64,000 bases of DNA from Cellvibrionales bacterium (GTDB lineage Bacteria > Pseudomonadota > Gammaproteobacteria > Pseudomonadales > GM7GCV1), in the NCBI GenBank assembly GCA_014323765.1, contig JACONM010000034.1, positions 25,076-89,075 on the forward strand, written 5' to 3'. Position 1 is the first letter of the stretch; every line of letters begins with the position of its first letter. The position numbers and the translations under genes are program-made. Below the pieces are notes generated by a model that was given only the letters and a program-made list of their open reading frames with translations, was not told the origin of the DNA and searched no databases. Below are positions 686 through 57,267 of the stretch, piece by piece.

Positions 686-4262
<3,577 letters not shown>

Positions 4263-4276
4263 CCCCCCCTGAGGCG

Positions 4277-4981
4277 ATGGCCAAGAAAACGCCTTTGGTG
4301 TTGCTGCCCGGCATGCTCTGCGATGGCCGCATGTGGCAAGCGCAAGTATCGGATTTAGCCGCTATTTGCGATCCCCTCATCATCGGCGATATTTCCCGAG
4401 CCAGCAGCATCCGCAAAATTGCCCAGCAAGTGCTGGCAACGGCACCGGGCCATTTTGCGCTGGCGGGCCTTTCCATGGGCGGCATTGTGGCCCTAGAGAT
4501 AGTGCGCCAAGCCCCTGAACGCATCACCCATCTAGCATTGCTGGATACCAACGCCTACGCCGAGAAGCCCGAGCGGCAAGCCAAGCGGGCCCATGAAATA
4601 GACTGTGCACAGGTTGGCCAGCTGCGCAAGCTGATGATCGAACAAATGAAACCGCTTTATCTGGCTAAAGCCAATCGCCAAAATCAAACCCTTTTGCATC
4701 TGGTGCTGGATATGGCGATGGATCTAGGCCCCGACGTTTTCGAGCGGCAGTCCATAGCACTGCGAGACCGACCCGACGCATCCGGCACACTCGCCACCAT
4801 CCGCTGCCCCACACTGGTGCTGTGCGGTGCCGAAGATGCCCTGTGCCCAGTCGCCTATCACCAATATATGCAATCCCAAATTCCCAATGCCCGGCTGGAG
4901 ATTATCGATAATTGCGGCCACCTGTCGGCACTGGAATGTCCACAGCAGGTCAATACTCACCTGCGCCAGTGGCTCCAATAA
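4277..4981 (+). CDS. alpha/beta hydrolase fold protein
   Basis: It begins MAKKTPLVLLPGMLCD and has the nucleophile elbow GLSMGG and a C-terminal CGH motif. The longer track ORF (3731) is an out-of-frame shadow over gyrB. Confidence 0.8.
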   Translation: MAKKTPLVLLPGMLCDGRMWQAQVSDLAAICDPLIIGDISRASSIRKIAQQVLATAPGHFALAGLSMGGIVALEIVRQAPERITHLALLDTNAYAEKPERQAKRAHEIDCAQVGQLRKLMIEQMKPLYLAKANRQNQTLLHLVLDMAMDLGPDVFERQSIALRDRPDASGTLATIRCPTLVLCGAEDALCPVAYHQYMQSQIPNARLEIIDNCGHLSALECPQQVNTHLRQWLQ

Positions 4982-17998: not shown

Positions 17999-19270
17999 CT
18001 ACTTGATCAATGCCATTGAAATGCCGGGAACGAAAGTAATCGTCAGCAGTGCTAGTAGCATGACTAGGATCCAACCGATCACGGCCCGGCTCAACCTTTC
18101 TAAGCTGATCTGCCCAACCTGAGAAGCCATAAACAAGTTTGCGCCTAGGGGTGGGGTGATAAAGCCAATAGCTAGATTAACCACCATCACAATACCAAAA
18201 TGTATCGGACTCATGCCCATCGCCGTGATTATGGGCAGCAAGATGGGTGTCAGTATCACTATGGCTGCTAGGGTTTCCATAAAAGTACCGACGATGAGCA
18301 GCAGCAAGTTGATGGCTAATAGAATCATGACGGCATTTTCCGTCAAGGATAAAATAAAGCTGGCAATTTCCGTTGGGATGCGCTCAATGGAAAGAATGCG
18401 TCCAAAAGAAACCGATGTTCCAATGATGACCAGCACCGCCCCTACCAACAATGAGGACTCTAGGATAATTTCAAAAATTTGGCGGATCGTAATTTCCCGG
18501 TAGACTAGGAAGCCAAAAACCAAGCCATAGACAACGGCGATAGCGGCAGATTCCGTAGGCGTAAAGACTCCAGAATAAATACCGCCTAGAATAATAAACG
18601 GAATCAGCAGGGCCCATTTGGCATCAATTAATGCCTGCCATTTTTCCCGATTGGTAAAATTCTGTTCTGACCCCATGTATCCATGCTTGTGGGACTGAAT
18701 TAGGCAATAGGCAATCAATACAAAACCAATAAACAGGCCCGGCAATATCCCGGCTAGAAACATATCTGTTACCGATACCTCGGCAGTGACTGCGTAGACG
18801 ATCATCACCACACTCGGCGGAATAATGACACCGATGCCGCCGGAGGTGGCCACGGTTGCGGTGGCAAAACCACGGTCATAACCACGCTTAACCATCATCG
18901 GAATCATGGTCAGGCCGATGGCGGCTACCGTGGCGGATCCTGTGCCGGATATGGAAGCAAAGAAAATGCAAGCGACAATAGTGACCACGCCAAGGCCACC
19001 AGTAGTGCGCCCAAGCCAAACTTCAGCTAAATGTAACAACCGCTGCGAGAGCCCGCCGCGGCTCATTAGGTTGCCGGCCAGGGTAAAGAGCACAACTGCC
19101 AATAGAGGGAATGAATCCAACCCTGAAACCAACCCCTGCACAAAAAATTCAAGGTTGAGAAAGGGCAACACTAGAATCGCCAGCATACTAGCGACTCCCA
19201 AGGCGACGCCGACTGGTATCCCCGCAACTAAAAGGACGATGAAACAGCCGAACAGAATAGCAACTATCAT
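17999..19270 (-). CDS. TRAP transporter large permease (DctM family)
   Basis: It is a 423 aa polytopic protein with DctM-like motifs, directly downstream of the DctQ and DctP genes. Confidence 0.92.
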   Translation of the reverse strand: MIVAILFGCFIVLLVAGIPVGVALGVASMLAILVLPFLNLEFFVQGLVSGLDSFPLLAVVLFTLAGNLMSRGGLSQRLLHLAEVWLGRTTGGLGVVTIVACIFFASISGTGSATVAAIGLTMIPMMVKRGYDRGFATATVATSGGIGVIIPPSVVMIVYAVTAEVSVTDMFLAGILPGLFIGFVLIAYCLIQSHKHGYMGSEQNFTNREKWQALIDAKWALLIPFIILGGIYSGVFTPTESAAIAVVYGLVFGFLVYREITIRQIFEIILESSLLVGAVLVIIGTSVSFGRILSIERIPTEIASFILSLTENAVMILLAINLLLLIVGTFMETLAAIVILTPILLPIITAMGMSPIHFGIVMVVNLAIGFITPPLGANLFMASQVGQISLERLSRAVIGWILVMLLALLTITFVPGISMALIK

Positions 19271-19272
19271 AT

Positions 19273-19785
19273 TCAGGCCGTCCGCTTATCGCTTGTAGCG
19301 GGGCTCGCTAGGCTGTCTCGCTCGATTAGACGTTGATAAAGGCGTACACACAGCCTGATAGAACAGAGCAGGGCACCGAAAAACACCGAGCTATACACCA
19401 CAGCGACTGGCCATTCTGTAGCCGGCGCGATCTGGCCCAGCTCTAGGCTACGCTTGATTAGCTGCCAACCAAATAGCATCACTGCAAGGGAATAGGTGAG
19501 AAAAACTAGATCTGCAAAGTTATGAAAAAACAACCTTCCTGCAGGGGGGAGCATATTTACAAACAAAGTAATACGAATATGACGATTATCCCGAATGGCG
19601 TAGCTGATACTCAAATACATGGCCCAAACAAAAAGATAACGAGCGATCTCTTCGGCTTCTGGCATGGAAGTACCGAACAGTCTCAATACTATCTGCGCAC
19701 AGATAATGCCCGTCATGGCACTGATAAGCAGAACAATGGCCACCGGCTCAAAATATCTTTCGAGAAGGCGTAGCGTTTTTCTCAT
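19273..19785 (-). CDS. TRAP transporter small permease (DctQ family)
   Basis: It is 170 aa with four TM segments and lies between the DctP and DctM genes. Confidence 0.85.
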   Translation of the reverse strand: MRKTLRLLERYFEPVAIVLLISAMTGIICAQIVLRLFGTSMPEAEEIARYLFVWAMYLSISYAIRDNRHIRITLFVNMLPPAGRLFFHNFADLVFLTYSLAVMLFGWQLIKRSLELGQIAPATEWPVAVVYSSVFFGALLCSIRLCVRLYQRLIERDSLASPATSDKRTA

Positions 19786-27500: not shown

Positions 27501-28745
27501 GTGTCACTGAGAAAGAAAACCGTCCCGCCAAAAGACCAGCAGATCGCCAACCACACCATCTTCACCGGCGACAATCTAGACATCATGCGCGGCATGAATT
27601 CCGCCAGCATCGACCTGATCTACCTCGACCCCCCATTCAATTCCAACCGCCACTATTCCGCCCCCATCGGCTCCAAAGCAGCCGGGGCCGAATTCAAAGA
27701 TGCCTGGACTTTCGAAGACACCAAAGACGCATGGTGGGGCCTAATCGCCGACCACCACCCAGCCCTCTTCAAGGTCATCGACGCGGCAGGTGACATCGGC
27801 AACACCGGCGACAAAGCCTATCTAATCTACATGGCCATGCGCCTGATTGAGATACACCGCATCCTAAAACCCACCGGCTCCCTCTACCTACACTGCGACC
27901 CGACCATGAGCCATAGCTTAAAGATGGCTATGGATGCGATTTTTGGTCACGCAAATTTTATCAACGAAGTGATTTGGCATTATCAGACCGGCGGCGCGAG
28001 CCGCAATCATTATTCTAAAAAACATGACGTAATTCTTTTTTACCGGGCTTCCCGCACCTACACGTTTAACGCAAAAGATGTAAGAGTGCCCCGCACCGAT
28101 GAAGTTTTACGCAGATTAGCATCCGGAAGTGATGCCGCTACACGCGCAACCGATGCAACCAAATTAGCAATGGATGTATGGGCCGACATTCAGGCTCTAA
28201 ATGCTATGGCGACAGAAAGGGTTGGCTATCCAACTCAAAAACCGCTTGACCTATTAAGACGCATCATCGCCGCTTCCAGCAACGAAGGCGACATAGTACT
28301 CGACCCATTTTGCGGCTGCGCCACGGCCCCTTTAGCGGCGGAAGATCTAGGCCGCCAATGGATCGGCATCGATATTGCCCCCCTAGCCGCAAAACTAGTC
28401 GTCCAACGCATGCGCGACGAACTCAACCTATTCGGCGATATAATACACCGCCAAGATATCCCCATCCGCACCGAAGACCTGAAACCACCGAGCGAAAACA
28501 TCACCCACATCCTGTTCGGCCTACAAGAAGGCAAATGCAACGGTTGCGGCATCAGCTTCCCCTTCCAAAACTTCACCCGCGACCACATAATCCCCCGCTC
28601 AAAAGGCGGCCCCGACACAGACAAAAACCTACAGCTACTCTGCGGTCGCTGCAATTCCATAAAAGGCAACCGCGACATGCCCTACCTAAAAGCCCGTCTA
28701 ATCGAGGATAGGATTATTGACAGGCCGAGGAGGGATGATGGATAA
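27501..28745 (+). CDS. N6/N4 DNA methyltransferase (beta-class, DPPF) fused to a C-terminal HNH endonuclease domain
   Basis: It has DLIYLDPPFNSNR (motif IV) near the N-terminus and YPTQKPLDLLRRII...VLDPFCGCATA (motif I). The C-terminus reads CNGC...DHIIPRSKGG...NLQLLCGRCNSIKGNR (CxxC-HNH-CxxC). It starts with GTG. Confidence 0.88.
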   Translation: MSLRKKTVPPKDQQIANHTIFTGDNLDIMRGMNSASIDLIYLDPPFNSNRHYSAPIGSKAAGAEFKDAWTFEDTKDAWWGLIADHHPALFKVIDAAGDIGNTGDKAYLIYMAMRLIEIHRILKPTGSLYLHCDPTMSHSLKMAMDAIFGHANFINEVIWHYQTGGASRNHYSKKHDVILFYRASRTYTFNAKDVRVPRTDEVLRRLASGSDAATRATDATKLAMDVWADIQALNAMATERVGYPTQKPLDLLRRIIAASSNEGDIVLDPFCGCATAPLAAEDLGRQWIGIDIAPLAAKLVVQRMRDELNLFGDIIHRQDIPIRTEDLKPPSENITHILFGLQEGKCNGCGISFPFQNFTRDHIIPRSKGGPDTDKNLQLLCGRCNSIKGNRDMPYLKARLIEDRIIDRPRRDDG

Positions 28746-28899
28746 GATTCTCTACGACAAGGCTTGCACAATTTTAGACAGAACCCTTGACAGCCTGTCA
28801 CCAGCCCTCTACTATCATCCACAGCGGTTGGAATTGCCGCAACAGTGCGTACAGGAACGAACCGTTTTGCTATGGTTCGTCAAGCCTGTGCGGTATTGA
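28735..28899 (+). CDS. small hypothetical protein (about 54 aa)
   Basis: The ATGATG start overlaps the MTase stop (GATGATGGATAA). I recognise no family, and coding is uncertain. Confidence 0.3.
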   Translation: MMDKILYDKACTILDRTLDSLSPALYYHPQRLELPQQCVQERTVLLWFVKPVRY

Positions 28900-28926
28900 A
28901 ATCGACTAGAGTGATGGGAGGGCATC

Positions 28927-29349
28927 ATGGCAGAGAAAGTGACACTTCGTTTGCGTTTGGAGGATGCCGAGTTTGAGGCAACTGGCTCTGAAACTTTTGT
29001 CCATTCTGTGTGGAAGGAATTTTTCTCCAAGTTTGGGGGATCGGGTGTCTCTTCAGGCAAGCCTTCGATCAGCCCACCGAAAAGTAGCATGTCTAAATCT
29101 GCTAAGAAGCCAGCACCCAAAGCCAAGGCCCGGAACTCAAAGAAAACGCCAGCATATCACAAGAATGACGAATTCGCTAACGGAGAGATGGGAGCAAAAT
29201 TCATAAGCGAATGGGAAAAAATTAACCAAAAACCTAAAGGCGCAGTAAAAACAAATATTGTTTTTATGTATTTACTAAAAGAAAAGCTGCAATATTCACC
29301 AGTTGATTCAAATCTTCTTTACACTTGCTATAAAGTGCTTAGCCTATAA
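28927..29349 (+). CDS. hypothetical protein with a K/S/P-rich linker; the frame stays open to 29484 past an in-frame TAA
   Basis: A GGGAGGG RBS lies 5 nt upstream of the ATG. A ~40 aa N-terminal domain is followed by a basic low-complexity linker (SKSAKKPAPKAKARNSKK) and a C-terminal domain. I see no family match by eye. Confidence 0.55.
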   Translation: MAEKVTLRLRLEDAEFEATGSETFVHSVWKEFFSKFGGSGVSSGKPSISPPKSSMSKSAKKPAPKAKARNSKKTPAYHKNDEFANGEMGAKFISEWEKINQKPKGAVKTNIVFMYLLKEKLQYSPVDSNLLYTCYKVLSL

Positions 29350-29485
29350 ATCCCCAATATTCCAACAAGCGTAAGGAATGCGATGGGCAAATACACAGCT
29401 ATCGATTTTAACGATTGGAGCGACTTGAAGCTCACTGTAAAGGGAGAAAACATGGCGCGAGAATTGATAGAGGCTAGCGACTAAT

Positions 29486-30223
29486 ATGTCGAATGACTTA
29501 GCTCGATTCGTATCTTCTCTTCAGTTCATTTCGTTAAAAACAATGGACAAAGTGGAAGCATTGCTCTGGTGGCATGGGGTCAATAAAACAAACGGTAATG
29601 GCCGAGTTAAGTTTAGCCAAATTAAACAGGAAATTGAAAACGCCAATCATGGCGAACTTCCAAGGAATGCAGCTTCTCTCATAATCAGGAAAAACGGTGT
29701 GGTAAAAGACAAGAATTCTGGCTGCTATTACCTTAGAACTAGTCGGGTTAATGAGTTATCGGAAGCTTATAGCGAATTTTTAGCCCCTACACCAAGAACT
29801 TCATCCAGTCTTCTTTTAGAAGAAGACTTTAAGGATACGCGGAGATATGTTGAAGCCGTCATCCGTCAAATAAATGTCAGCTATGATGAAAAATTATATG
29901 ATTGTTGCGCGATCATGATACGCCGATTGATTGAAACTCTTATAATTGAGTTATTTGAACGCAAAAAAGTCGCCAATGAGATAAAATTTGACGGTGGGAA
30001 TTACAAGATGCTAAAAGAAATATTGAATACTCTTAATGCGAGCCAATCAGTCAGCATTTCCCGGAAATCTCAAAATATCCCAAAATTGGAAAAATTTAAA
30101 GAGAATATAGCAGATAAATCAGCGCACAACAGAACTTTCAATGCCAAAAAATCTGACATTGACAATGTATGGGAAGATTTAAGGGCAATTATCCTGGATT
30201 TAAAAGCTCAGGCTTTCGATTAG
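29486..30223 (+). CDS. hypothetical protein; C-terminal half resembles a DUF4145-type helical module
   Basis: The ATG lies 1 nt after the preceding frame's stop, in an AT-rich stretch. The pattern CCAIMIRRLIETLIIELFE ... LEKFKENIADKSAHN ... WEDLRAIILDL is DUF4145-like. This is recognition by eye only. Confidence 0.55.
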   Translation: MSNDLARFVSSLQFISLKTMDKVEALLWWHGVNKTNGNGRVKFSQIKQEIENANHGELPRNAASLIIRKNGVVKDKNSGCYYLRTSRVNELSEAYSEFLAPTPRTSSSLLLEEDFKDTRRYVEAVIRQINVSYDEKLYDCCAIMIRRLIETLIIELFERKKVANEIKFDGGNYKMLKEILNTLNASQSVSISRKSQNIPKLEKFKENIADKSAHNRTFNAKKSDIDNVWEDLRAIILDLKAQAFD

Positions 30224-30394
30224 ATCTTTCTACCGCTCTCCAATCTCAATCAGTCCGCTTCACTCTCCCTCGCTCCTTTAAGTAGAAACATGTTAGATTA
30301 AAATTTCTAAACTAGGGTCGCACCCCCACTTAGCCATGTAAAGCCTCCTCGTTACCCTATTTCAGGGGCGATACAAAATTTTAGAAAAATTCTC

Positions 30395-30472
30395 TTGACA
30401 CTAGACATAGCAAGGTCTTACAGTAGGCAGTCTAGTAAAAGGAGGCGGTCCGGGTGCTTTGTCTAGTATAAT
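30395..30472 (+). promoter_or_regulatory. candidate promoter(s) and repeated GTCTAGT motif upstream of the Dam-type MTase
   Basis: TTGACA (30395-30400) is followed 18 nt later by TACAGT. ACTAGAC (30400-30406) is the inverted form of GTCTAGT, which occurs at 30430-30436 and 30461-30467. TATAAT lies at 30467-30472. Confidence 0.4.
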
Positions 30473-30519
30473 GGCAGGCAAACGAATCACTTATCAGAAA
30501 CTGATTGTGAGACGAAGTT

Positions 30520-31398
30520 ATGACTAGAAAAGCCCATTATACCGAAGACATCCCGGCTACCTTTGAGTATGTGGTGGTTGGCGAACAGATGATGGATGTG
30601 CGCTATAGTGTTCCTACCACCCCCACCACCCCATCAAAGGTGCGCTCACCGCTACGCTACCCAGGCGGCAAAAGCCGTGCGGTGGATACCATCTTAGATC
30701 TGATGCCACCCGGGCTTGATTGTATTGCCAGCCCATTTTTCGGCGGCGGCAGCATTGAGCTTGCCTTAGTAAGCAATGGAGTTCAGGTATCTGGCTACGA
30801 TATTTTTGAGCCGCTAGTCGCTTTTTGGCAGGCCGCAATCAATGCTCCCCAAGCACTTGCCAAACGAGTTGCGGTTTATCACCCGATGAACCGCGACATT
30901 TTTTATTCACTGCAGAAAAAAATGCGCGACGACAGGGTGCTCGATACAGATATAGCGGCGGTGTTTTTTGCGCTAAACCGGTGTAGTTTTTCTGGAACAA
31001 CTTTATCCGGTGGGATGTCCCCCGGGCATCCTCGTTTCACGCAATCGTCCATAGACCGGGTATGCAATTTTGATAGCCATGGACTACTATCCGTTGAGCG
31101 ACTAGGGTTTGAAGAAAGCATCGCTCGCCACAGCAACGATTTTCTTTATTGCGACCCGCCTTACGCCAATGGGGGAGCACTGTATGGACAACGCGGCGAT
31201 TGCCATGTGGATTTTGATCATGAATCGTTGGCCGAGATATTAACGTCTCGCGATGGGTGGATTCTGTCTTACAACGATTGCCCTATAGTTCGCGACTTAT
31301 ATGCTGGCTTTACTGTGCTTGATGCCGCTTGGTCTTATGGGATGAATAGCGACAAAAAAAGCAACGAGATCCTAGTTTTGTCTAAAGACTTGATGTAG
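30520..31398 (+). CDS. Dam-family (alpha-class, D12) N6-adenine DNA methyltransferase
   Basis: LRYPGGKSR, SPFFGGGS (AdoMet motif I) and YCDPPYA (motif IV) occur in the alpha-class order. Confidence 0.9.
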   Translation: MTRKAHYTEDIPATFEYVVVGEQMMDVRYSVPTTPTTPSKVRSPLRYPGGKSRAVDTILDLMPPGLDCIASPFFGGGSIELALVSNGVQVSGYDIFEPLVAFWQAAINAPQALAKRVAVYHPMNRDIFYSLQKKMRDDRVLDTDIAAVFFALNRCSFSGTTLSGGMSPGHPRFTQSSIDRVCNFDSHGLLSVERLGFEESIARHSNDFLYCDPPYANGGALYGQRGDCHVDFDHESLAEILTSRDGWILSYNDCPIVRDLYAGFTVLDAAWSYGMNSDKKSNEILVLSKDLM

Positions 31399-31403
31399 TT
31401 ACA

Positions 31404-32294
31404 ATGGGTAAGCAAGTCATCAATGGGCTGGGCTTTGAGTATGCTATAGCCCATGCACTGAACCGAATTTTGCATTGCGGCATTGCGCAGAATACCGCTG
31501 CCAAAAAATGCGCGACGGCTTACCGTGCAATGGATAAAAATATCAGAATAAAGGCGGATGTTTCGGCAGAAAAAATAGCGGCTTTTCTGCTGCAGTGCGA
31601 TAAGCGACTAAATCATGCTGTCACAATATCTATTCAGGGTAGTGCGGAAGGTCGGACGGGTGATGTTCGCGATGTTTTGATCGATTGTGTCGACAGTGAA
31701 ATAGGAATCAGTGCCAAACATCGCCATTACGATGTCAAGCATCCGCGCCTATCCAGCAAGATCGACTTCGGCAAGCAATGGGGTGACCAGCCTGTGAGCG
31801 ATACATATTGGCGCAGAGTTAAGCCGATATTTGAAGATTTGCAAGAGCGACGGCTTCGAGGAGAAAAATGGCGCAACATACCGAATAAGCAAGGCACTAT
31901 CTATTTGCCACTGCTAATCGCATTTCAAGATGAGCTAGAAAGGCTGTGCGCAGATTACGGCAGGCAATTTATTCCGCGATTCTTTCACTACCTCATAGGG
32001 CGCAATGATTTTTACAAGGCCATTTGTGATACACATGAGTCGGTCGTTGAATCCATTAACCTTAATGGAACACTGGCATGGGGCGATAAATGGAAAATAC
32101 CCGATCGCATCCAGTCGGTAAATAGAGCCACCAATAGTGAGACCATATTAATTGTCACCTTCGAGGGCGGCTGGCAAATTAGCTTCCGCCTGCATAGTGC
32201 CAGTAGCAAAGTGGAACCTAGCCTAAAGTTTGCAGTGAGTTTTATTGGTGTCTCAAGCAAGGTGAGTAGAATCACCTTGTCGCATGATGATTGA
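31404..32294 (+). CDS. putative type II restriction endonuclease partner of the Dam-type MTase
   Basis: It starts 5 nt after the MTase stop and is equally AT-rich. A possible PD-(D/E)XK-like core is GDVRDVLID..DSEIGISAKH. I could not assign a family by eye. Confidence 0.5.
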   Translation: MGKQVINGLGFEYAIAHALNRILHCGIAQNTAAKKCATAYRAMDKNIRIKADVSAEKIAAFLLQCDKRLNHAVTISIQGSAEGRTGDVRDVLIDCVDSEIGISAKHRHYDVKHPRLSSKIDFGKQWGDQPVSDTYWRRVKPIFEDLQERRLRGEKWRNIPNKQGTIYLPLLIAFQDELERLCADYGRQFIPRFFHYLIGRNDFYKAICDTHESVVESINLNGTLAWGDKWKIPDRIQSVNRATNSETILIVTFEGGWQISFRLHSASSKVEPSLKFAVSFIGVSSKVSRITLSHDD

Positions 32295-41265: not shown

Positions 41266-41341
41266 TGAGGTAGAATCCAAAATGTTCGGTCGCTACGCTG
41301 GCCGAGCAGGACTTGTCATTCAATCAATGGGAGAAGTAACC

Positions 41342-42037
41342 ATGCGTATATTTTCACTGATGCCTATTATTTTGCTGGCACTGGCCGGCTGCACTACAAT
41401 GCGCTCGCATTATTCGCCAGAGGTGCAGTATTTTAGCGAACCAGCGGTTAATGCCACGGCTACTGTGGGCCTAGGCGAGGCCATGTTGCGTCAGGGGCGA
41501 ATGGCCGAGCATGACACAATTTATTTTGAACAGGAATGCAAAATTAGTAGTAGGCTAGCGTATTACAGATTATTTCCGGGTTACTGGACGAAAGAAGGAT
41601 CAAACAAGCGGGGTGATTTTTACCGACCGAGCCAGTATGGGAATCCAGCCTCCGTTCGCAAATCTGCGTGGGCCGATCCTTTTCAATCCTTGTATATCCC
41701 GCATCATAAAAGAAAAATCTGTGCAGTAAATGTGTTTAATACCAAAATCTGTAAAAAATACGAGGGTGAATATCAACGCACGACGCAAACTGCAATATCT
41801 GATCAATATTTTCAGCAGCACCTAATTTACGGTGGTGGCCACTGTGAAAAAATCAACATGATTTATCGCGAACTTATCCACAGTGCCGCACGGTCTGCCT
41901 TTGACCATGAAGTGGAATATGACCTGTCCGAGTCAAAAATAATCGGCTATCGCGGAGCCAGAGTTGAAATTATTAATGCCACAAATTCGGAAATTACCTA
42001 CCGAGTGCTGCGCCATTTTAACGAGCCGGGCCGGTAG
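41342..42037 (+). CDS. hypothetical lipoprotein (AT-rich insertion)
   Basis: It has a lipobox (MRIFSLMPIILLALAGC). The gene is markedly AT-richer than its dprA and tsaC neighbours, and I recognise no family. Confidence 0.6.
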   Translation: MRIFSLMPIILLALAGCTTMRSHYSPEVQYFSEPAVNATATVGLGEAMLRQGRMAEHDTIYFEQECKISSRLAYYRLFPGYWTKEGSNKRGDFYRPSQYGNPASVRKSAWADPFQSLYIPHHKRKICAVNVFNTKICKKYEGEYQRTTQTAISDQYFQQHLIYGGGHCEKINMIYRELIHSAARSAFDHEVEYDLSESKIIGYRGARVEIINATNSEITYRVLRHFNEPGR

Positions 42038-44477: not shown

Positions 44478-45935
44478 ATGAATCGCTTATATTACGGCGA
44501 CAACCTAACCATCATGCAGGAAATGGAACCCGCCAGCGTCGATCTCATTTACCTCGACCCACCCTTTAATTCCAACCGCTCCTACAACGCCATCTACAAA
44601 GATGAAACCGGTCGGCCTCTTCCGGACCAGATCGATGCCTTTTGCGATCTATGGACGCTAAACGAAGAGCATGAGCGAGCCATCCGCCATATGCCAGTGA
44701 TCCTGCGAGAAGCAGGGCTAGACGATGAAACAGTCGAATTCTGGCGACTGTGGATGAACGCCCTACGAAAAACCCAACCCACCATGCTGGCGTATCTGTC
44801 TTACATGATGCAGCGACTCATTGTAATGAAGCGACTGCTACGCCCCACCGGCTCAATTTATCTGCACTGCGATCCCACAGCCAGCCATTACATCAAAGTA
44901 ATGATGGATGTGGTTTTTGGGAATAAAAATTTTCTCAATGAGATCGCGTGGTGCTACAAATCGGGCGGTGCCAGCAAACGTTGGTTTGCCCGCAAGCACG
45001 ATGTGCTGCTGTATTATGCGCATTCAAAAGGAAGCCACTTATTCCATCCGATAAAAATAAAATCATACGGTCAAAGCGGCGGAGGGCAAGGCGGCAAAGT
45101 TAAATATCACAAAGACAGTCAAGGCACCTATTCGATTGTAAGTGCCCGTGATTGGTGGGAAATATCGATGCTTTCAACTACGCATCCGGAACGCCTAGGC
45201 TACGCCACTCAAAAACCATTAGCCCTGCTAGAACGGGTAATCCAAGCCAGCAGCAACGAAGGCGACACAGTCCTAGACCCTTTCTGCGGCTGCGCCACCA
45301 CCTTAGAAGCCGCGCACCGACTTAAGCGAAATTGGATCGGCATAGACATTGCCATCCACGCCATAAAGCGAGTAGCCGCTATCCGCCTAGGCGAACGCTG
45401 CCACCTAAAGCAAGGCAAAGACTTTGCAATAGCCGGGATCCCACACAGCCTAGAAGGCGCAAAAGATTTATGGGAGCGAGACAAGTACCACTTCCAGAAA
45501 TGGGCCGTGGAGGAAGTAGATGGGTTTGTTACCGCCAAGCGCACCGCCGATGGCGGCATAGACGGCAGGCTGTACTTCGACATGCCCGGCCAGCGCGATC
45601 TGCAAAGCATGATCCTAGAAGTCAAGGGCGGTAAAAATGTCAGCATCGCCGACTTCCGCGCTTTGCACAGTGTCCTAGAGCGAGAAGAAGCCTTAATGGC
45701 TGGCTTAATCACCATGGAACCGCTACCCGACCGCCAAAAAACCAACTTCCTAAAACTGGCCGCCCAAGCCGGCGACCTAGAAATGCCCGGCTCAATCCGC
45801 CATTACCCCAAACTCCAGATCCTATCCGTACCCGAAATCCTAGAAGGCAAGCGGTTTGCAACCCCTACTCCTATGGGGAAGTCTGGATCTTTACAAAACA
45901 GATTCAGCTATGCCGCTAACCCAAGCGATTGTTGA
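44478..45935 (+). CDS. N6/N4 DNA methyltransferase (DPPF) fused to a C-terminal Mrr-like PD-(D/E)XK restriction-endonuclease domain
   Basis: It has DLIYLDPPFNSNR and ATQKPLALLERVI...VLDPFCGCATT. The C-terminus reads FQKWAVEEV...ADGGIDGRLYF...MILEVKGGKN, the Mrr catalytic-domain pattern. Confidence 0.85.
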   Translation: MNRLYYGDNLTIMQEMEPASVDLIYLDPPFNSNRSYNAIYKDETGRPLPDQIDAFCDLWTLNEEHERAIRHMPVILREAGLDDETVEFWRLWMNALRKTQPTMLAYLSYMMQRLIVMKRLLRPTGSIYLHCDPTASHYIKVMMDVVFGNKNFLNEIAWCYKSGGASKRWFARKHDVLLYYAHSKGSHLFHPIKIKSYGQSGGGQGGKVKYHKDSQGTYSIVSARDWWEISMLSTTHPERLGYATQKPLALLERVIQASSNEGDTVLDPFCGCATTLEAAHRLKRNWIGIDIAIHAIKRVAAIRLGERCHLKQGKDFAIAGIPHSLEGAKDLWERDKYHFQKWAVEEVDGFVTAKRTADGGIDGRLYFDMPGQRDLQSMILEVKGGKNVSIADFRALHSVLEREEALMAGLITMEPLPDRQKTNFLKLAAQAGDLEMPGSIRHYPKLQILSVPEILEGKRFATPTPMGKSGSLQNRFSYAANPSDC

Positions 45936-46130: not shown

Positions 46131-47744
46131 GTGAACCGTCTATATTACGGCGACAACCTAACCATCATGCAGGAAATGGAATCCGCCAGCGTCGATCTCA
46201 TTTACCTCGACCCACCGTTCAATTCCAACCGTGACTACCACGCCATCTACAAAAGCGAGACCGGTCGCCCCATAAACGCCCAAGTGGTCGCCTTCACCGA
46301 CCAATGGGAATACACGGCTCGTACCGAAGCCGCCAGTAAAGAACTGCCGCATGCAATGGCCGCGGTCGGTATTGATGGTACTTGGTGGCTCGGCTTAGCC
46401 AGTATGCTCCGCGCCAGCGACCCGCCATTGCTGGCTTACCTCACCTATATGACCGAGCGGCTAATAATAATGCGCCGCCTGCTCAAACCCACCGGCAGCC
46501 TTTATTTACACTGCGACGACGAAGCTGTCCATTACCTAAAAATTGTGCTGGACGGAATTTTCGGACGCACCAATTTCCGCAATCAAATTGCATGGCAACG
46601 CATAAAAGGGGCCGGCAAACGCAGCCAACACGGAATCAAAAATTACGGACGTTCATCGGATATCCTCCTTTTTTACAGTGCCGGCAAAACCTACACCTTT
46701 AATGCGCAAGCAATTAGCCTACTGTACGCTGACATTGAAAAATCTTTTCCGTTCACGGATAAAAAAGGCCGTTACAAACGAAGAAGTCCATTCCGCCCCC
46801 CGGGTTTAGGTCCGCGCCCAAATCTTTGTTACGAATACAAAGGGGTTTTCCCCCCGCACCCTTCTGGCTGGACAGTAAAAGAAAGTAAATTGGCCGCGCT
46901 AGATAAGGCGGGGGAGTTAGAATGGATCGGGCAAAAACCTTGGCGCAAACAGCGACCATCCAGCGGCATAGTCCCGAACAACATCTGGACGGACATCAAC
47001 CCCCCATCAAAAAGCGAGCGCCTAGGCTACCCCACCCAAAAGCCCCTAAAACTCCTCGACCGCATAATAAAAGCCAGCAGCAACGAAGGCGATCTAGTCC
47101 TAGACCCCTTTTGCGGCTGCGCAACCACCATCGAGGCCGCACACCGATTGAATCGCCGATAGATCGGCATCGATATCGCCTACTACGCCATCAAATGCGT
47201 CTCCCGCGACCGCCTAGCCGACCAACTCAACCTGATTCCGGATCAGCACTTCGCCATCGAAGGGGTGCCCAATTCCTTCGAGAGCGCACTCGACCTATGG
47301 ACGCGAGATCCTTACCACTTCCAACAATGGGCAGTAAGCCTTGTCGAAGGAATCGTCCTCGCCCGCCAAAGCGGTGATAAAGGCATAGACGGCTGGATAT
47401 TCTTCGACCTGCCCGATCAAAAAGACTGCGCCGGCATGGTGCTAGAAGTCAAGGGCGGCCAAAACCCGACTGCCGAAAATGTCCGCAGCCTAGGCGGCGT
47501 ACTCGACCGCGAACCGTTCGCCGAAATGGCCGGCCTAATTCTGCTACACCCACCGGGAACTCAAAAACGCCGCAACTTCGAGACTGAAATGGCCGCCGCC
47601 GGCCACCTCGAAGTCAAAGGCCGAAAACACCCCCGCATGCAAATCCTCACCATCGAAGAAATACTCGCCGGCAAACAATTCGACTTACCCGCCCCACCCC
47701 GCACCAGCCGCGATCCCAATCGCCAGTTGACGGGCATCCTTTAA
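46131..47744 (+). pseudogene. paralogous MTase/Mrr-like nuclease fusion interrupted by one in-frame amber codon (TAG 47160-47162)
   Basis: ORFs 46131-47162 and 47265-47744 are in the same frame. RLNRR*IGIDIA aligns with RLKRNWIGIDIA in the paralogue (TGG to TAG). The central region is divergent. Confidence 0.8.
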
Positions 47745-47822
47745 CAGAGTAAGTTTGCCGAATTCAACTCAAGCATCTGTCGTTTTTTCTATCGGGATAT
47801 GAAAACCTTTGAGGAAGGATAA

Positions 47823-48815
47823 ATGAATCAAGCAAAATGTCCAATAACTGGACTTCCAGCGGTCTATCGAAATGGCTTCAATACAGGCATACATTACTAC
47901 AGCGTGGATGATACTGAGCTTTCCTACGGGATTACTAGGGAGGCAAGAGAAGACAAACTGCCAATATTAAAGAAGGAGAAAGTTCAACTGAAGTTGACCA
48001 AACTTGCATTTTGGATCTTGCAACAGAATAGACGCGGTATTAGGAATCCCGTTATTTATTCGGCTGACGTTGACTATTTGGTGAACATGCCAATGCCACG
48101 TCTTCGTGACAGGATGGTCAGTTTTATGTCTTCGTTTCGACAGGCAACGAATGGAACGCTTATCAAAATAAACGCAGCTAGATTTATTCCCGTATGGAGA
48201 ATTGCGTCATGTTCTTTTAATGATGATGATTTAGCTTCGTTTATCGAGCAGATGACATCGCTTGGTTACATTGATTGTAAATTTTCTCGTACCATGAGTG
48301 GTGTTGTATTCGGGAACGCCTCTTTGACATTTGCCGGGTTGCAATTTTTGGAAGAATTGGAATCAAAAAATGCACTTTCGAAAGAAGTTTTCCTCGCAAT
48401 GTGGTTTGACTCTTCAATGGATATACTTTTCCGGCATTTAAAAGAAGAGTTTAAACGCAATACCGATATGGAATTGGTCCGGATAGATAAAACGGAACAC
48501 AACAACAAGATTGACGATGAAATAATCGCCCGCCTCAGAAGCAGTCGTCTGGTCATCGCCGATTTTACCTGCGCTGATGCGGGTAAAGCTCATCGCGGCG
48601 GCGTTTATTATGAAGCGGGGTTTGCTCATGGCCTGAATAGACATGTGATTTTCACTGTTAGAGAAGATTGCGTTAAAAACCTTCATTTTGATACACGACA
48701 ATATAATCACATTGTTTGGAAGCAAAATGAATCCAGTGAGCTGGTCGTGGCAGGAGATGAAAACAAACCACTCGGACAAGCCATATTGGAGAGGATTCAA
48801 GCCCTTGGGGCTTAA
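47823..48815 (+). CDS. hypothetical protein: unknown N-terminal region, winged-helix-like middle, C-terminal nucleoside 2-deoxyribosyltransferase/TIR-like domain
   Basis: It is the most AT-rich gene in the window. Its C-terminus (VFLAMWFD...IDDEIIARLRSSRLVIADFT...GGVYYEAGFAHGLNRHVIF) matches the NDT-like Rossmannoid pattern by eye. Confidence 0.6.
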   Translation: MNQAKCPITGLPAVYRNGFNTGIHYYSVDDTELSYGITREAREDKLPILKKEKVQLKLTKLAFWILQQNRRGIRNPVIYSADVDYLVNMPMPRLRDRMVSFMSSFRQATNGTLIKINAARFIPVWRIASCSFNDDDLASFIEQMTSLGYIDCKFSRTMSGVVFGNASLTFAGLQFLEELESKNALSKEVFLAMWFDSSMDILFRHLKEEFKRNTDMELVRIDKTEHNNKIDDEIIARLRSSRLVIADFTCADAGKAHRGGVYYEAGFAHGLNRHVIFTVREDCVKNLHFDTRQYNHIVWKQNESSELVVAGDENKPLGQAILERIQALGA

Positions 48816-48892
48816 TTCTTTTTCTAGGATGTGGTTTTTATGTTAAGCACCTATGCTATCGTAACCAACACACACTTCAACGGGAACACACC

Positions 48893-56222: not shown

Positions 56223-56630
56223 ATGCTCCGCATATTTCTCATCGCCTGCGCCGCAAAGAAAAAACCGACCGCCTGCCCGGCAGACAGACTGTACGACAGC
56301 CCGCTATTCCAAAAAAGCCTTGCCTATGCCCGCCGCAAAGCAGCAGACAAAATTTACATTCTATCCGCAAAACATGGACTATTAAAAACGCAAGCAAAGA
56401 TCGCGCCCTATAATCTGACACTCAATCAAATGCCGCTCCACGCCCGCCGCAAATGGGCCAACAAGGTCGCCATCCAGCTGCAAAATGAAACCAATTTGCA
56501 GGAAGACCTATTCACATTTCTAGCCGGCCAAAAATATCGTGAAAACCTAGAGCCGCTCATGGCGCATGTCGAGACACCGCTCGCCGGAATGCCCATAGGC
56601 AAGCAGCTACAATGGCTAGGGAGCAATTAA
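56223..56630 (+). CDS. DUF6884-like small protein
   Basis: The pattern MLRIFLIACAAKKK...LYDSPLF...IYILSAKHGLL....IAPYNLTL...FLAGQKYRE...ETPLAGMPIGKQLQWL matches my memory of DUF6884. It is AT-richer than the cox genes. Confidence 0.6.
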   Translation: MLRIFLIACAAKKKPTACPADRLYDSPLFQKSLAYARRKAADKIYILSAKHGLLKTQAKIAPYNLTLNQMPLHARRKWANKVAIQLQNETNLQEDLFTFLAGQKYRENLEPLMAHVETPLAGMPIGKQLQWLGSN

Positions 56631-56631
56631 C

Positions 56632-57267
56632 ATGTCGGAAGCATGCCAAATCCTGCACCGGGTTTTTAATGCTTTGCCGCGCTTGGATGCCAATTACAGC
56701 GAACAAACTATTCCACGTAACGGAATCTATATCCTGTTCGAGAAAGGTGAAACAGCGCACGGCACCGACCGCATTGTGCGCATTGGCACTCATACCGGCC
56801 AAGACAACCTGCGACAGCGATTAAAAGAACATTTATTCACCCCGAATAAAGACCGCAGCATATTCCGCAAACATATCGGGCGGTGTTTTTTGAATAAAAA
56901 TAACGATCCTTTTTTAGCGCGCTGGGATTTAGATCTAACCAATCGAGAAAACCGCCTGCGATACAAAAACCAAATTAACCAGAAAAAACTCATCGAGACC
57001 GAAAACGCTGTAACCAGCTATATGCAAGAAAAATTCTCCTTTGTCGTATTTGCAGAACCAATAAAGTCGAAACGCTGCGACTTAGAAACACAGCTTATCG
57101 CCACGGTCGCCCAGTGCGAAGACTGCCACCCCTCCCCCAGTTGGCTCGGCAATCACCATCCGAATTCAGCAATCAAAAAATCCGGCCTTTGGAATGTACA
57201 AGGGCGAACCAAAACCCCGCTCACCACTTCTCAAGCCAAAGATTTAGCCGCAACACTCACCGATTAA
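56632..57267 (+). CDS. GIY-YIG nuclease superfamily protein
   Basis: It starts 1 nt after the preceding stop. It shows NGIYILFEKGE...IVRIGTHTG.DNLRQRLKEH, then RKHIG and a downstream conserved E (LETQLI). Confidence 0.7.
   Translation: MSEACQILHRVFNALPRLDANYSEQTIPRNGIYILFEKGETAHGTDRIVRIGTHTGQDNLRQRLKEHLFTPNKDRSIFRKHIGRCFLNKNNDPFLARWDLDLTNRENRLRYKNQINQKKLIETENAVTSYMQEKFSFVVFAEPIKSKRCDLETQLIATVAQCEDCHPSPSWLGNHHPNSAIKKSGLWNVQGRTKTPLTTSQAKDLAATLTD

Follow-up and report, generated by a model that had tools for sequence, protein, structure and literature searches.

A winged-helix protein with an NDT-like domain, often carried downstream of restriction-modification genes, as a candidate anti-phage effector

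Introduction

Second-line suicide effectors housed in restriction-modification (R-M) operons are exemplified by PrrC, which occupies position X in the hsdM-hsdS-X-hsdR layout of the prr locus. The effector of retron Ec86 (Eco1, type II), which acts in abortive infection, combines an N-terminal domain resembling nucleoside 2-deoxyribosyltransferase (NDT) with a C-terminal winged helix-turn-helix (wHTH). This effector depletes NAD+ (PMC13276650; bioRxiv 10.1101/2023.08.16.553469) and has been reported to deplete adenine derivatives, and its NDT domain contacts DNA (both bioRxiv 10.1101/2023.08.16.553469); its release is brought about by a change in DNA methylation (PMC13276650). For Abi proteins, comparative genomics from the Aravind laboratory has proposed architectures in which variable N-terminal sensors are joined to interchangeable toxins, NDT-like and TIR domains among them (PMC3710099; PMC9503650), and proteins that combine PUA-like with DrHyd or TIR domains have been found embedded in R-M operons with N6A methylases (10.64898/2026.01.15.699771). 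The anti-phage DUF4062/NIR proteins (Swarozyc, Evangelion) contain a TIR/NDT-related NADase domain with a conserved Glu (10.64898/2026.05.01.722283; 10.64898/2026.09.04.749371).

Here we describe a gene from a 64,000-nt stretch of a Cellvibrionales bacterium contig (JACONM010000034.1), referred to below as the window, whose 330-aa product joins a β/α region and a winged helix to an NDT-like domain. An earlier note, made from the DNA letters, had seen in it a defence candidate that fits no named system; in agreement with this, PADLOC, NCBIfam and Pfam hold no model for it. A previous description of such a sensor-NDT-like family, or of its N-terminal module, was not found in the literature searched, most subscription journals lying outside the scope of that search.

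The protein and the Ec86 effector both contain a winged helix and an NDT-like Rossmannoid domain, but the order of the two is reversed, the family has an extra N-terminal sub-domain of ~90 aa, and its link is to host R-M methylases and not to a retron. No reverse transcriptase or ncRNA was seen near the gene, the ±10 kb around it are free of RT Pfam families, and the PADLOC retron effector models gave zero matches to the protein. DNPH1/Rcl and the NDT family (PF05014) provide its best structural matches and, as far as a weak alignment shows, may have in common with it a 'hydrophobic strand - G-x-x-Y-E-x-G' motif whose Glu is invariant; however, the HFDTRQ and AMWFD motifs are not evident in DNPH1 over the aligned region, the family has a 185-aa sensor half, and its context is one of defence and R-M, not of metabolism. 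The domains of single-gene NADase effectors of the TIR, SEFIR and Cap12 types replace the NDT-like one in some proteins that have the N-terminal module, and these proteins are alike in size (~330-390 aa) and in sensor-effector layout, whereas the protein described here has no Pfam TIR, TIR_2 or SEFIR match and a fold nearer to NDT. As with PrrC and RloC, homologues fill the hsdS-X-hsdR slot with overlapping stop and start codons, and the concept of a suicide effector carried as a second line within an R-M operon is common to both, yet the window protein contains neither an ABC-ATPase nor an anticodon nuclease domain (Pfam, NCBIfam), its fold being wHTH plus NDT-like. In further contrast to PrrC and RloC, the family is linked also to Type III, IIG/ISP, DUF1156-type and Type II systems, many copies have no R-M neighbour, and the window copy follows β-MTase/Mrr-like genes, with no Type I genes adjoining the ORF. 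Effectors of the AbiJ-NTD plus NDT/TIR and 'DrHyd' kinds belong to the same conceptual class, but the N-terminal module shows no Pfam match to AbiJ-NTD or PUA and has a distinct β/α plus wHTH structure. Nor does the protein match DUF4062 in Pfam at E<=1, and its motifs and partners differ from those of DUF4062/NIR proteins. Membership in the DUF4062/NIR, retron, CBASS, Pycsar and Thoeris systems was rejected because models or partners were missing: neither a CD-NTase nor a pyrimidine cyclase occurs within ±10 kb of the gene or among the recurrent neighbour families, and a ThsA-type gene is found neither near it nor among the 25 most frequent neighbour families listed. ThsB-like TIR genes lie downstream in 3 homologous loci.

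Results

The features of the gene and of its upstream neighbours are collected in Table 1. Translation reproduced the ORF, from ATG to stop and with the exact coordinates of the ORF list, as well as all of the motifs that had been quoted from it: DDLASFIEQMTSLGYIDCKF (aa 134-153), VFLAMWFD (188-195), IDDEIIARLRSSRLVIADFT (230-249) and GVYYEAGFAHGLNRHVIF (260-277). In the 78-bp spacer 5' of the ORF a promoter scan found no promoter-like match on the + strand, and the hairpin at the other end is probably the end of the transcription unit. The GC content of the ORF is 0.419, compared to 0.569 for the window, and the locus forms a low-GC island flanked by aroE and yceI. It is not the lowest in the window, as had been claimed, since an island around 29.2 kb is lower still (0.37).

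Table 1. Coordinates of the ORF, its sub-features and its upstream neighbours (window positions)
Feature	Position	Strand	Details and basis
ORF, sensor-NDT-like protein	47823..48815	+	330 aa plus stop, complete; ORF list
Shine-Dalgarno-like sequence GAGGAAGGA	47811..47819	+	3 nt separate its end from the ATG; intergenic sequence
β/α sub-domain, aa 1-90	47823..48092	+	Three short β-strands, then helices; secondary structure
Family motif C6-P-I-(W/T)-G-x-P-A, in the β/α sub-domain	47838-47861	+	
Winged helix-turn-helix, PadR/MarR-like, aa ~94-185	48102..48377	+	Foldseek, Pfam, PHROGs
NDT/DNPH1-like (TIR-superfamily) Rossmannoid domain, predicted N-glycosidase effector, aa 186-330	48378..48812	+	Pfam, PADLOC, Foldseek, BFVD, PHROGs
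D231/D232, invariant	48513-48518	+	
Glu264 codon, in GGVYYEAGFAHG, predicted catalytic nucleophile	48612..48614	+	Invariant in 50/50 sequences
HFDTRQ, invariant	48684-48701	+	
Terminator-like hairpin AAGCCC-TTG-GGGCTT, then T-run	48799..48825	+	Overlaps the ORF stop codon; terminator scan
Upstream neighbour 1: β-class N6_N4 DNA methylase, intact, with C-terminal Mrr-like PD-(D/E)xK extension	44478..45935	+	485 aa; Pfam, PADLOC
Upstream neighbour 2: paralogous methylase/Mrr-like gene, broken by one in-frame TAG	46131..47744	+	Translation, codon check

The gene had been said to sit directly downstream of methylase-nuclease genes. As to position this was correct, as there are two N6_N4 methylase genes, each extended at its C-terminus by an Mrr-like tail, on the same strand 78 bp upstream; as to the genes themselves it has to be qualified, the nearer one being broken and the nuclease tails being matched below threshold. 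The intact methylase is recognised by PF01555 (1.4e-38) and PADLOC MTase_II (1.9e-53), and its tail by Mrr_cat (E=0.13) and NA-iREase1 (E=0.037) only. These sub-threshold Pfam matches (E=0.04-0.13), together with a GxDG...EVKGG motif, suggest that the Mrr-like tails may be nucleases. In the paralogue, the TAG (47160-47162) replaces the conserved Trp of 'WIGIDI' in what is otherwise one reading frame, and the TAG-bearing sequence is identical across two independent assemblies; this gene is probably a pseudogene or a split gene.

The structure of the protein was taken from an AlphaFold model (mean pLDDT 87.7), in which three parts can be distinguished: aa 1-90, aa ~94-185 and aa 186-330. The last of these had been recognised in the earlier note as an NDT/TIR-like Rossmannoid fold, and several searches bear this out. 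PF05014 (NDT/DNPH1) matched aa 201-282 with 21.7 bits (E=2.3e-4), which is below its gathering threshold of 28.8 bits, and a precomputed match to this family is present in 5 among the 120 homologues listed. The PADLOC 'Effector TIR' model PDLC00733 scored 1e-7, albeit over 83 of its 388 profile positions, and phrog_16139 matched the domain at 2e-35. With the model as query, the best Foldseek match in the PDB was human DNPH1/Rcl (E=3e-4, TM-score normalised to target 0.62-0.69), below which came the TIR domains of SARM1, MyD88, SIGIRR and SPARTA (E=3e-3 to 2e-2, probability ~1.0); bacterial NDT 7o62 was matched at 9e-3. In BFVD, CMP/hmCMP hydrolase and NDT were the best matches and Cap12/Pycsar TIR ranked lower. 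As modelled, aa 186-330 is an NDT-type Rossmannoid fold, which is TIR-like as well but nearer to NDT than to TIR. None of the Pfam TIR families (PF01582 / PF13676), TIR_2 or SEFIR was found on the 330-aa protein at E<=1. Searches of PDB sequences, with the single protein and with a profile of 50 sequences, gave no match to the catalytic domain; its kinship to NDT and TIR was revealed by fold comparison only.

Conservation was assessed in an alignment of 50 homologues that are 33-48% identical to the window protein. It contains 29 invariant columns, which places the motifs far beyond chance; they include F190, A192-M193-W194, I230-D231-D232, D247-F248, R258-G259, E264 and H288-F-D-T-R-Q293. The Glu of YYEAG, whose conservation the earlier note had proposed to check, is this same E264. 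In an hhalign comparison it was paired with the Glu in the 'GVGYELG' motif of DNPH1, weakly (probability 2%, E=0.023) and with a DNPH1 sequence that is approximate. NDT and DNPH1 enzymes have their nucleophilic Glu in a G-x-x-Y-E-x-G loop and an acidic residue on the helix before it, positions for which E264 and D231/D232 are candidates here.

The N-terminus, earlier described as unassignable, did remain so for its first ~90 aa: neither a significant PDB fold match nor a family match was obtained (Foldseek, Pfam, NCBIfam), apart from a sub-threshold Pfam match to YL1_C at aa 5-28. Within the N-terminal half C6, I8 and G72 are invariant, and W64, P76 and R97 nearly so (homologue alignment A3). 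The winged-helix-like segment suspected next to it was recovered by Foldseek, in which the N-terminal model matched PadR/MarR/HpaR regulators over ~90 residues (E~1e-2, TM-score normalised to target 0.5-0.57). Residues 170-184 form a long linker helix that closes this sub-domain. The wHTH region also gave matches to Pfam DUF2513 (E=0.017) and to phrog_585/phrog_3675. No model in the Pfam, NCBIfam, PADLOC and PHROGs libraries used covers the sensor half.

At E<=1e-3 the protein has 3,097 homologues, mostly 310-345 aa in length, and zero matches in NCBIfam; a profile of the N-terminal module retrieved 2,170 representative clusters. Among 235 N-terminal-module matches whose tails were examined, 164 carry an NDT-like tail (137 complete, 27 truncated) and 15 another one, including TIR, SEFIR and Cap12-type domains, one TM tail and one unknown tail. 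Two of these tails are canonical TIR_2 (P0138 and P0140; 72 bits, Pfam), and PDB sequence searches identified a TIR (P0223; 7uxr, 2e-5), a SEFIR (P0322; 5y8e, 7e-23) and a Cap12-type TIR-like tail (P0220; 9lmq, 8e-5). Judged from these sequences, a common N-terminal module with interchangeable effectors is the sensor/swappable-effector pattern of defence proteins. The verified swapped tails belong to the TIR/NDT superfamily and include NAD-cleaving TIR and Cap12 members, which points to NAD+ as a shared substrate. The window protein itself lies in a divergent sub-clade (CPITGLPA vs CPIWGTPA), and compared pair by pair with the TIR-fused N-terminal modules it shows no similarity that is significant in itself, the relationship being seen at profile level only.

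The family is spread patchily over Proteobacteria, Chloroflexota, Acidobacteriota, Latescibacterota, Binatia, Bdellovibrionota and others. Plasmids carry copies of the family gene, which is also found in Staphylococcus phages as a moron on the opposite strand, and integrases, transposases and a resolvase are among the neighbours. The window gene is horizontally acquired.

The genomic neighbourhoods of homologues, an analysis which had also been suggested earlier, were compared at 76 loci of GTDB reference genomes, with neighbour identities assigned by Pfam. R-M genes lie within ±3 genes at 26 of the 76 loci, an enrichment near the family gene that is highly significant (Fisher OR 13.9, p=3.7e-11). 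They make up 28% of the genes at position -1, about 3% of those downstream and 4/414 at |d|>=7. The linkage is thus polarised: the family gene lies 3' of a methylase or specificity gene, on the same strand throughout, often overlapping the upstream R-M gene by 4 bp, and junctions of -4 to +10 bp were seen with hsdS, Mod, Type ISP, hsdR and a UvrD-like helicase. Types I, III and IIG/ISP and β-MTase-nuclease fusions are all represented, and the family tree contains at least ~16 separate R-M-linked runs covering four R-M types. When lineage was checked, 14 of the 28 R-M-linked tree copies (27 loci plus the window) fell into two clades, and ~14 were scattered among unlinked relatives. A 50%-identical relative is placed after an MvaI/BcnI REase, a 37%-identical one follows two MTase-HNH fusions, and a TIR variant adjoins an MmeI-type enzyme. 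The hsdS-X-hsdR slot of a Type I operon is filled at L055 and similarly at four other loci (L066, L070, L075 and L077), and in this layout hsdS and hsdR each overlap the family gene by 4 bp. R-M operons that carry the family gene also hold MNT/HEPN and ThsB-like TIR genes.

An independent metagenome set replicated this linkage weakly, with R-M genes at 6 of 42 loci (BLAST probes). Among that set, 92 neighbours classified by Pfam were mainly housekeeping genes, integrases and UvrD-type helicases, and R-M families were absent from their recurrent Pfam families. An obligate partnership with R-M was rejected, as about two thirds of the GTDB loci and most of the metagenome loci are without an R-M gene. 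The data favour a facultative link, in which the gene is autonomous and co-transcription with a methylase or specificity gene is common without being obligatory; of the two possibilities left open by the earlier note, a single gene or a partner of the methylases, the former is therefore preferred, with co-transcription frequent. Since many copies lie among housekeeping genes, a 'defence island' context is not general.

Discussion

By analogy, an architecture in which a DNA-binding-type sensor half is joined to a nucleotide- or NAD-cleaving half is typical of bacterial suicide-type antiviral proteins, and the defence reading is supported by the effector swapping on the N-terminal module and by the R-M enrichment directly upstream. 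We favour, with modest confidence, the view that the gene encodes a self-contained, single-polypeptide anti-phage protein of the abortive-infection type, an N-glycosidase and probably an NADase, which is often carried in R-M operons. Residues 1-185, comprising the novel β/α region and the PadR/MarR-like winged helix, would act as a sensing or regulatory module, most likely one that binds nucleic acid, or else a ligand derived from the phage or related to R-M; residues 186-330 would be the effector, in which Glu264, once triggered, would cleave an N-glycosidic bond. The most probable substrate would be NAD+, and depletion of this cofactor would stop phage replication while sacrificing cell growth. 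The gene may accordingly be pictured as a mobile cassette that works alone, but has frequently been inserted immediately 3' of an R-M methylase or specificity gene and then shares the transcript of that gene. Arguing against NADase activity, the best structural matches are dNMP/CMP N-glycosidases (DNPH1, MilB-like) and not NADases.

One alternative, which appears unlikely, is that the protein guards the R-M system in the way of PrrC. With the same effector chemistry, the protein would then not be autonomous: either the co-encoded methylase/specificity complex or DNA bearing its methylation would keep the effector in check, and disablement or evasion of R-M by a phage would set it off, anti-restriction proteins and a foreign methylation pattern being examples of the means. 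In Type I operons the homologues sit where PrrC does in its own locus. A strictly polarised, same-strand linkage across unrelated R-M types, the DNA-binding type of the wHTH and the release of the Ec86 NDT-like effector by a methylation change (PMC13276650) are in line with a guard as well. Against this, most loci have no R-M gene nearby, the partner R-M types offer no common protein for one sensor, and one of the two adjacent methylase genes in the window is broken. Moreover, unrelated defence/TA genes such as MNT/HEPN and ThsB-like TIR are commonly embedded in R-M operons, so that co-location may simply mean a shared integration hotspot.

Similarly doubtful is the proposal that the N-terminal β/α plus winged-helix module reads the mark of the co-transcribed methylase, either on DNA or as a methylated mononucleotide set free by degradation of the chromosome, and in this way gates an NDT-like NADase. 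If true, such a methylation-reading family would be a retron-free counterpart of Ec86 and a fold-unrelated analogue of Metis; it would represent a portable 'methylation-keyed suicide switch' that backs up the attached R-M system, be it Type I, III, IIG or β-MTase-nuclease. Metis MisB had been considered as a possible NDT-fold enzyme, which was rejected, as MisB is a HAD phosphatase.

We give less weight to a nucleotide-directed N-glycosidase, namely a DNPH1-like hydrolase of (modified) dNMPs, that would serve either as a pool-destroying effector or as a methylase companion that would clear, or respond to, methylated mononucleotides (m6dAMP, m4dCMP) coming from methylated DNA. The closest structures, DNPH1 (a dNMP/5hmdUMP hydrolase) and CMP/hmCMP hydrolase, speak for it, as does a linkage that is specific to methylase and specificity genes. 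Methylome-derived m6dAMP is a danger signal that is cleared by MisB (bioRxiv 10.1101/2025.11.05.686725; 10.64898/2026.01.15.699771), and the reported depletion of adenine derivatives by the retron Ec86 effector (bioRxiv 10.1101/2023.08.16.553469) also fits. The exchange of effectors for TIR, SEFIR and Cap12-type domains on the N-terminal module, however, points to NAD+ rather than dNMPs; a wHTH sensor half would be needless in a housekeeping 'sanitiser', and a patchy distribution and foreign GC are unlike one.

Action on DNA itself is decidedly improbable. Here the winged helix would place the NDT-like domain on DNA, and bases would be excised from phage or unmethylated DNA, as by an R component of the 'restriction glycosylase' kind or by a Brig1-like defence that forms a pair with the methylase. 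The combination of a wHTH with an N-glycosidase fold directly after methylase genes is compatible with this, NDT toxin domains would, in the proposal of Anantharaman et al. 2013, attack DNA as ricin attacks RNA (PMC3710099), and the NDT domain of retron Ec86 touches DNA (bioRxiv 10.1101/2023.08.16.553469). Most of the linked R-M operons nevertheless have a nuclease of their own (HsdR, Res, Type ISP, HNH/Mrr tails), and a small-molecule substrate is favoured by the exchange of the effector for TIR, SEFIR and Cap12 domains, which cleave NAD. It also counts against a DNA glycosylase that, to our knowledge, action on polymeric DNA is not established for any NDT-fold enzyme.

An ordinary metabolic enzyme, an NDT or a salvage nucleotide hydrolase found in the island by chance, is highly improbable: the fold and the Glu are NDT-like and PGAP and JGI label some homologues 'nucleoside 2-deoxyribosyltransferase', but the PF05014 score is under the gathering threshold, the sensor half adds 185 aa, relatives swap the effector for TIR, SEFIR or Cap12 domains, and foreign GC, embedding in R-M operons and the occurrence of copies on plasmids or as a prophage moron do not suit such an enzyme.

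If the reading as a self-contained anti-phage protein is right, the family would be a widespread candidate defence family without a matching model, with about 3,100 homologues and 2,170 sensor-module clusters. It would add a new sensor domain driving NADase effectors of the TIR/NDT superfamily, and, independent of retrons, a second setting in which immunity makes use of the NDT fold. It would also offer a tractable system in which to study why suicide effectors so often share a transcript with R-M methylation modules, whether as guard, methylation reader or mere passenger. The natural series of NDT-like, TIR, SEFIR and Cap12-type tails on one sensor would be a ready panel for separating sensing from killing.

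Two further ORFs of the window (28927-30223) were considered as recurrent partners of the family and rejected, with zero relatives among 1,435 neighbour proteins. Both are unknown low-GC ORFs, and they are preceded by the window's third MTase-nuclease gene.

The ORF and its immediate surroundings

The ORF of the NDT-like protein lies exactly where the earlier note had placed it, and its translation contains every peptide motif quoted there. At 0.419 (GC3, 0.405), its GC content is lower than that of the whole window (0.569) and of yceI downstream (0.62), and the gene has the look of a horizontal acquisition. The claim that it has the lowest GC in the window does not hold, because an island near 29.2 kb falls to 0.37. 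A Shine-Dalgarno-like sequence, GAGGAAGGA, stands shortly 5' of the ORF, and a terminator-like hairpin overlaps its stop codon. The MTase-nuclease genes said to lie directly upstream are a pair, each encoding a β-class N6_N4 DNA methylase with an Mrr-like tail; they are on the same strand and end 78 bp 5' of the ORF. The TAG in the nearer gene falls exactly on the conserved Trp of the intact paralogue; since this sequence is the same in two independent metagenome assemblies, the TAG is probably a real nonsense mutation, parting the methylase portion from the nuclease-like tail.

Features of the window and of one phage relative
Feature	Position	Strand	Remarks
Second low-GC island	27501-32294	+	GC 0.37-0.45, lower than the island of the NDT-like ORF
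N6_N4 methylase-HNH fusion	within 27501-32294	+	414 aa; 66% identical to one beside the NDT-like homologue at locus L005
Low-GC ORF	28927-29349	+	after the methylase-HNH fusion
Low-GC ORF	29486-30223	+	after the methylase-HNH fusion
Dam-like D12 methylase and HaeIII-like endonuclease	within 27501-32294	+	after the two low-GC ORFs
ORF between dprA and tsaC	41282-42037	+	251 aa; GC 0.46
Intact methylase/Mrr-like paralogue	44478-45935	+	'WIGIDI' with conserved Trp
Nearer methylase/Mrr-like gene	46131-47744	+	one frame, single TAG
TAG codon	47160-47162		in the nearer gene
NDT-like ORF	47823-48815	+	ATG start; 330 aa
YL1_C match	47835-47906		aa 5-28 of the NDT-like protein
DUF6884 and GIY_YIG_3 gene pair	~56223-57267	+	18401-19445 of locus L001; GC 0.49
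Catalytic-domain-only gene	3890-4549 of Staphylococcus phage vB_SauS_Mh1 (L088)	opposite	219 aa; replication module

Sequence family and predicted structure

Pfam Nuc_deoxyrib_tr matched the protein at E=2.3e-4 and 21.7 bits, below the gathering score of 28.8 bits. Other matches were to Pfam DUF2513 (winged helix; E=0.017), one PADLOC 'TIR effector' model (1e-7) and phrog_16139 (function not assigned; 2e-35); NCBIfam and PDB sequence searches gave none. Although these library labels are weak, the family is large: it has 3,097 members at E<=1e-3, almost all of them 310-345 aa long and named 'hypothetical'. In an alignment of 50 homologues, whose identity to the window protein is 33-48%, 29 columns are invariant and concentrated in the last 145 residues, among them F190, A192-M-W194, D222, I230-D-D232, D247-F248, R258-G259, V261-Y262, E264-A-G266 and H288-F-D-T-R-Q293; E264 is the Glu previously proposed as catalytic. 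At the N-terminus C6-P-I8-(W/T)-G is conserved. A sub-threshold match to Pfam YL1_C (E=1e-3; 19.1 bits against a cut-off of 22.6) coincides with C-P-I-(W/T)-G-x-P-A, the N-terminal motif best conserved in the family. YL1_C is a motif of eukaryotic chromatin remodellers, and the resemblance may be due to chance.

An AlphaFold2 model built with the 50-sequence alignment is confident (mean pLDDT 87.7) and divides into three: residues 1-90, with three short β-strands and helices; residues ~94-185, folded as a winged helix; and residues 186-330, which form an α/β Rossmannoid domain. When compared to the PDB by Foldseek, human DNPH1/Rcl ranked first (E=3e-4; TM-score normalised to target, 0.62-0.69), followed by the TIR domains of SARM1, MyD88, SIGIRR and SPARTA and one bacterial NDT; among viral models CMP/hmCMP hydrolase and NDT came on top, with Cap12/Pycsar TIR lower. 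A profile-sequence alignment sets E264 against the nucleophile Glu of the DNPH1 GYELG motif, but the match is weak. For the N-terminal half modelled alone (pLDDT 90.9, pTM 0.86), matches were confined to winged-helix regulators of the PadR/MarR type and spanned ~90 residues; its first ~90 residues had no structural match. The model and fold comparisons therefore support the earlier note on three points: an NDT/TIR-like fold, a winged-helix segment and an N-terminus that cannot be assigned. The protein has two parts: an N-terminal module that contains a wHTH, and a domain of the NDT/TIR superfamily with an invariant Glu/Asp constellation.

An N-terminal module with interchangeable tails

A 22-sequence profile of residues 1-185 only detected 551 proteins in a word-indexed database and, in an exhaustive search, 2,170 representative clusters (1,102 at E<=1e-10). 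Tails were classified for 235 hits: 137 have a complete NDT-like domain, 27 a truncated one, 56 the N-terminal module alone (probably fragments) and 15 a different tail. The latter include canonical TIR_2 (proteins P0138/P0140, 72 bits against a Pfam cut-off of 28; P0311 and P0314 look alike), TIR with an extra domain (P0223; PDB 7uxr at 2e-5), SEFIR (P0322, PDB 5y8e at 7e-23; P0254 looks alike) and a Cap12-type TIR-like domain (P0220, PDB Cap12 at 8e-5; P0278 looks alike). The tail of P0269, with predicted transmembrane helices, and that of P0229, ~170 unassigned residues that have no PDB match but include 'FHDRYVFVD', a motif resembling those of PLD-type nucleases, look like further effector swaps.

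This modularity is the most informative result of the analysis: one sensor-like module with interchangeable TIR/NDT-superfamily domains is a classic signature of abortive-infection defence proteins. Because the same module couples to either kind of domain, the NDT-like domain is predicted to do as defence TIR domains do and cleave NAD+; tail swapping is the best available argument for this. Within the N-terminal family the window protein is on a branch of its more divergent members. Compared pairwise by BLAST with a TIR-fused member, it showed no significant similarity, and it is tied to such members at the profile level only (profile score 1e-45 to 3e-46).

Association with restriction-modification genes

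A pattern scan, run on a single genome for each GTDB species, yielded at least 564 relatives; the best 80 loci were kept with ±10 kb of flank, neighbour ORFs were called crudely (longest ORFs, greedy selection) and 1,435 neighbour proteins were clustered. In these best 80 of at least 564, R-M components, confirmed by Pfam and PADLOC, were the only recurrent neighbours: Type I operons (hsdM-(MNT/HEPN)-hsdS-NDT-like gene-...-hsdR), a conserved Type III-like cassette (Res, ~370-aa protein, 976-aa Mod, NDT-like gene, UvrD-like helicase), Type ISP/IIG enzymes, a DUF1156-methylase/HEPN-DUF499/SNF2 system and β-MTase-nuclease fusions. The neighbourhood analysis proposed earlier thus finds R-M genes enriched, with an R-M-cluster gene within ±3 genes in 26/76 GTDB loci. 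R-M-cluster genes account for 28% of the genes in position -1, some 18% in -2 and -3 and some 3% in +1 to +3, with 4/414 at seven or more genes away; all of them share the strand of the NDT-like gene (Fisher OR 13.9, p=3.7e-11). Many junctions measure -4 to +10 bp, which implies co-transcription and often translational coupling with the R-M genes. Individual relatives fit this picture: one from Parvibaculaceae (37% identical) comes after two MTase-HNH fusions, a fragment (50% identical) after an MvaI/BcnI endonuclease, and a TIR-tailed variant adjoins an MmeI-type enzyme; further relatives adjoin resolvase, RES-domain, transposase or integrase genes. The NDT-like gene is itself a mobile cassette, polarised 3' of methylation modules, and its effector domains are swappable within the TIR/NDT superfamily.

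A neighbour-joining tree splits the R-M-linked copies into roughly 16 distinct runs. Of the 28 linked copies, 14 fall in just two clades, one made up of the mobile Type III-like cassette and the other of Type I loci from Chloroflexota. The remainder, with four R-M types represented, are dispersed among unlinked relatives; the association is therefore not that of one inherited operon. Of 80 independent metagenome loci 42 were usable, and these reproduced the link weakly, BLAST probes detecting R-M genes in six, including an identical Res-Mod-NDT-like-helicase cassette. The 92 neighbours in this set (Pfam) were mainly housekeeping genes, with three integrases and UvrD-type helicases. We conclude that the gene appears autonomous and mobile, with R-M operons as a frequent but facultative home; where the earlier note offered a single-gene system or an MTase partner, the data favour the former, often but not obligatorily co-transcribed with methylase or specificity genes.

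The Type III-like cassette (Res-like helicase of ~1,010 aa, N6_N4 Mod-like methylase of 976-990 aa, UvrD-like helicase of ~700 aa) was seen in Alpha- and Gammaproteobacteria at loci L010, L031, L058, L068, L023 (partial) and L103/L104, with overlapping or almost abutting junctions; it is apparently mobile, and its five genes may form a distinct defence system of their own. Several passengers occur together in Type I loci L055, L062, L066, L070, L075, L077, L081 and L083, mostly from Chloroflexota/Dehalococcoidia (L062, Bdellovibrionales): between hsdM and hsdR lie the NDT-like gene and MNT/HEPN pairs, in one of which the MNT is joined to HsdS. ThsB-like TIR genes, downstream in three loci, are possibly also passengers of some Type I operons.

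The NDT-like catalytic domain is also plasmid-borne, where PGAP sometimes writes 'nucleoside 2-deoxyribosyltransferase'. Without the N-terminal module it is also encoded by many S. aureus phietaviruses, whose replication module carries it as an insert on the opposite strand, and by Streptococcus prophages. The phietavirus position is typical of prophage-carried defence, and the protein looks like a prophage defence or exclusion moron.

Proposed mode of action and comparison with named systems

We infer that the N-terminal half would sense an infection-associated cue, upon which the C-terminal half would hydrolyse NAD+ (or a nucleotide), so that the cell arrests. The nearest characterised analogue, the retron Ec86 effector, shares an NDT-like domain and a wHTH but in reversed order; it is freed when phage methylases modify msDNA, and depletes NAD+ (PMC13276650; bioRxiv 10.1101/2023.08.16.553469). 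Less probable alternatives to NAD+ cleavage, to which the swapped tails point, are a DNPH1-like hydrolase of (modified) dNMPs and, lower still, a DNA glycosylase; a metabolic NDT is unlikely. In Type I operons the NDT-like gene occupies the slot that prrC has in the prr locus. Methylome-derived m6dAMP can act as a danger signal (bioRxiv 10.1101/2025.11.05.686725; 10.64898/2026.01.15.699771) and DrHyd/TIR effectors with PUA-like sensors sit in R-M operons with N6A methylases (10.64898/2026.01.15.699771), so it is conceivable, if doubtful, that the methylation state produced by the neighbouring methylase is what this family reads.

No named system fits, as the earlier note had held. Pfam NDT membership fails at the gathering score, and the protein belongs neither to Pfam TIR nor to DUF4062/NIR. 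Retron effectors were rejected (no RT, reversed domain order, no model match), as were CBASS, Pycsar and Thoeris effectors, whose partner genes are missing at the window locus, and PrrC, whose domains are unrelated. The family does have the generic 'sensor NTD + swappable toxin' Abi architecture already described by comparative genomics (PMC3710099; PMC9503650). A literature search, with most subscription journals outside its scope, found no description of the N-terminal module or the family. The candidate is credible, widespread and experimentally tractable; it would be conceptually surprising to a specialist only if the methylation-coupled or R-M-guard reading were true.

Other unusual stretches of the window

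The methylase-HNH fusion of the second low-GC island brings the β-MTase-nuclease fusion genes of this genome to three. The two low-GC ORFs that follow it had no Pfam match and no relatives among the 1,435 neighbour proteins. The ORF between dprA and tsaC, which interrupts a row of housekeeping genes that is otherwise conserved, has a lipoprotein-like N-terminus and matches phrog_1353 (function not assigned) at 1e-54. The DUF6884 and GIY_YIG_3 pair, directly 3' of cytochrome oxidase genes, may be another small inserted module.
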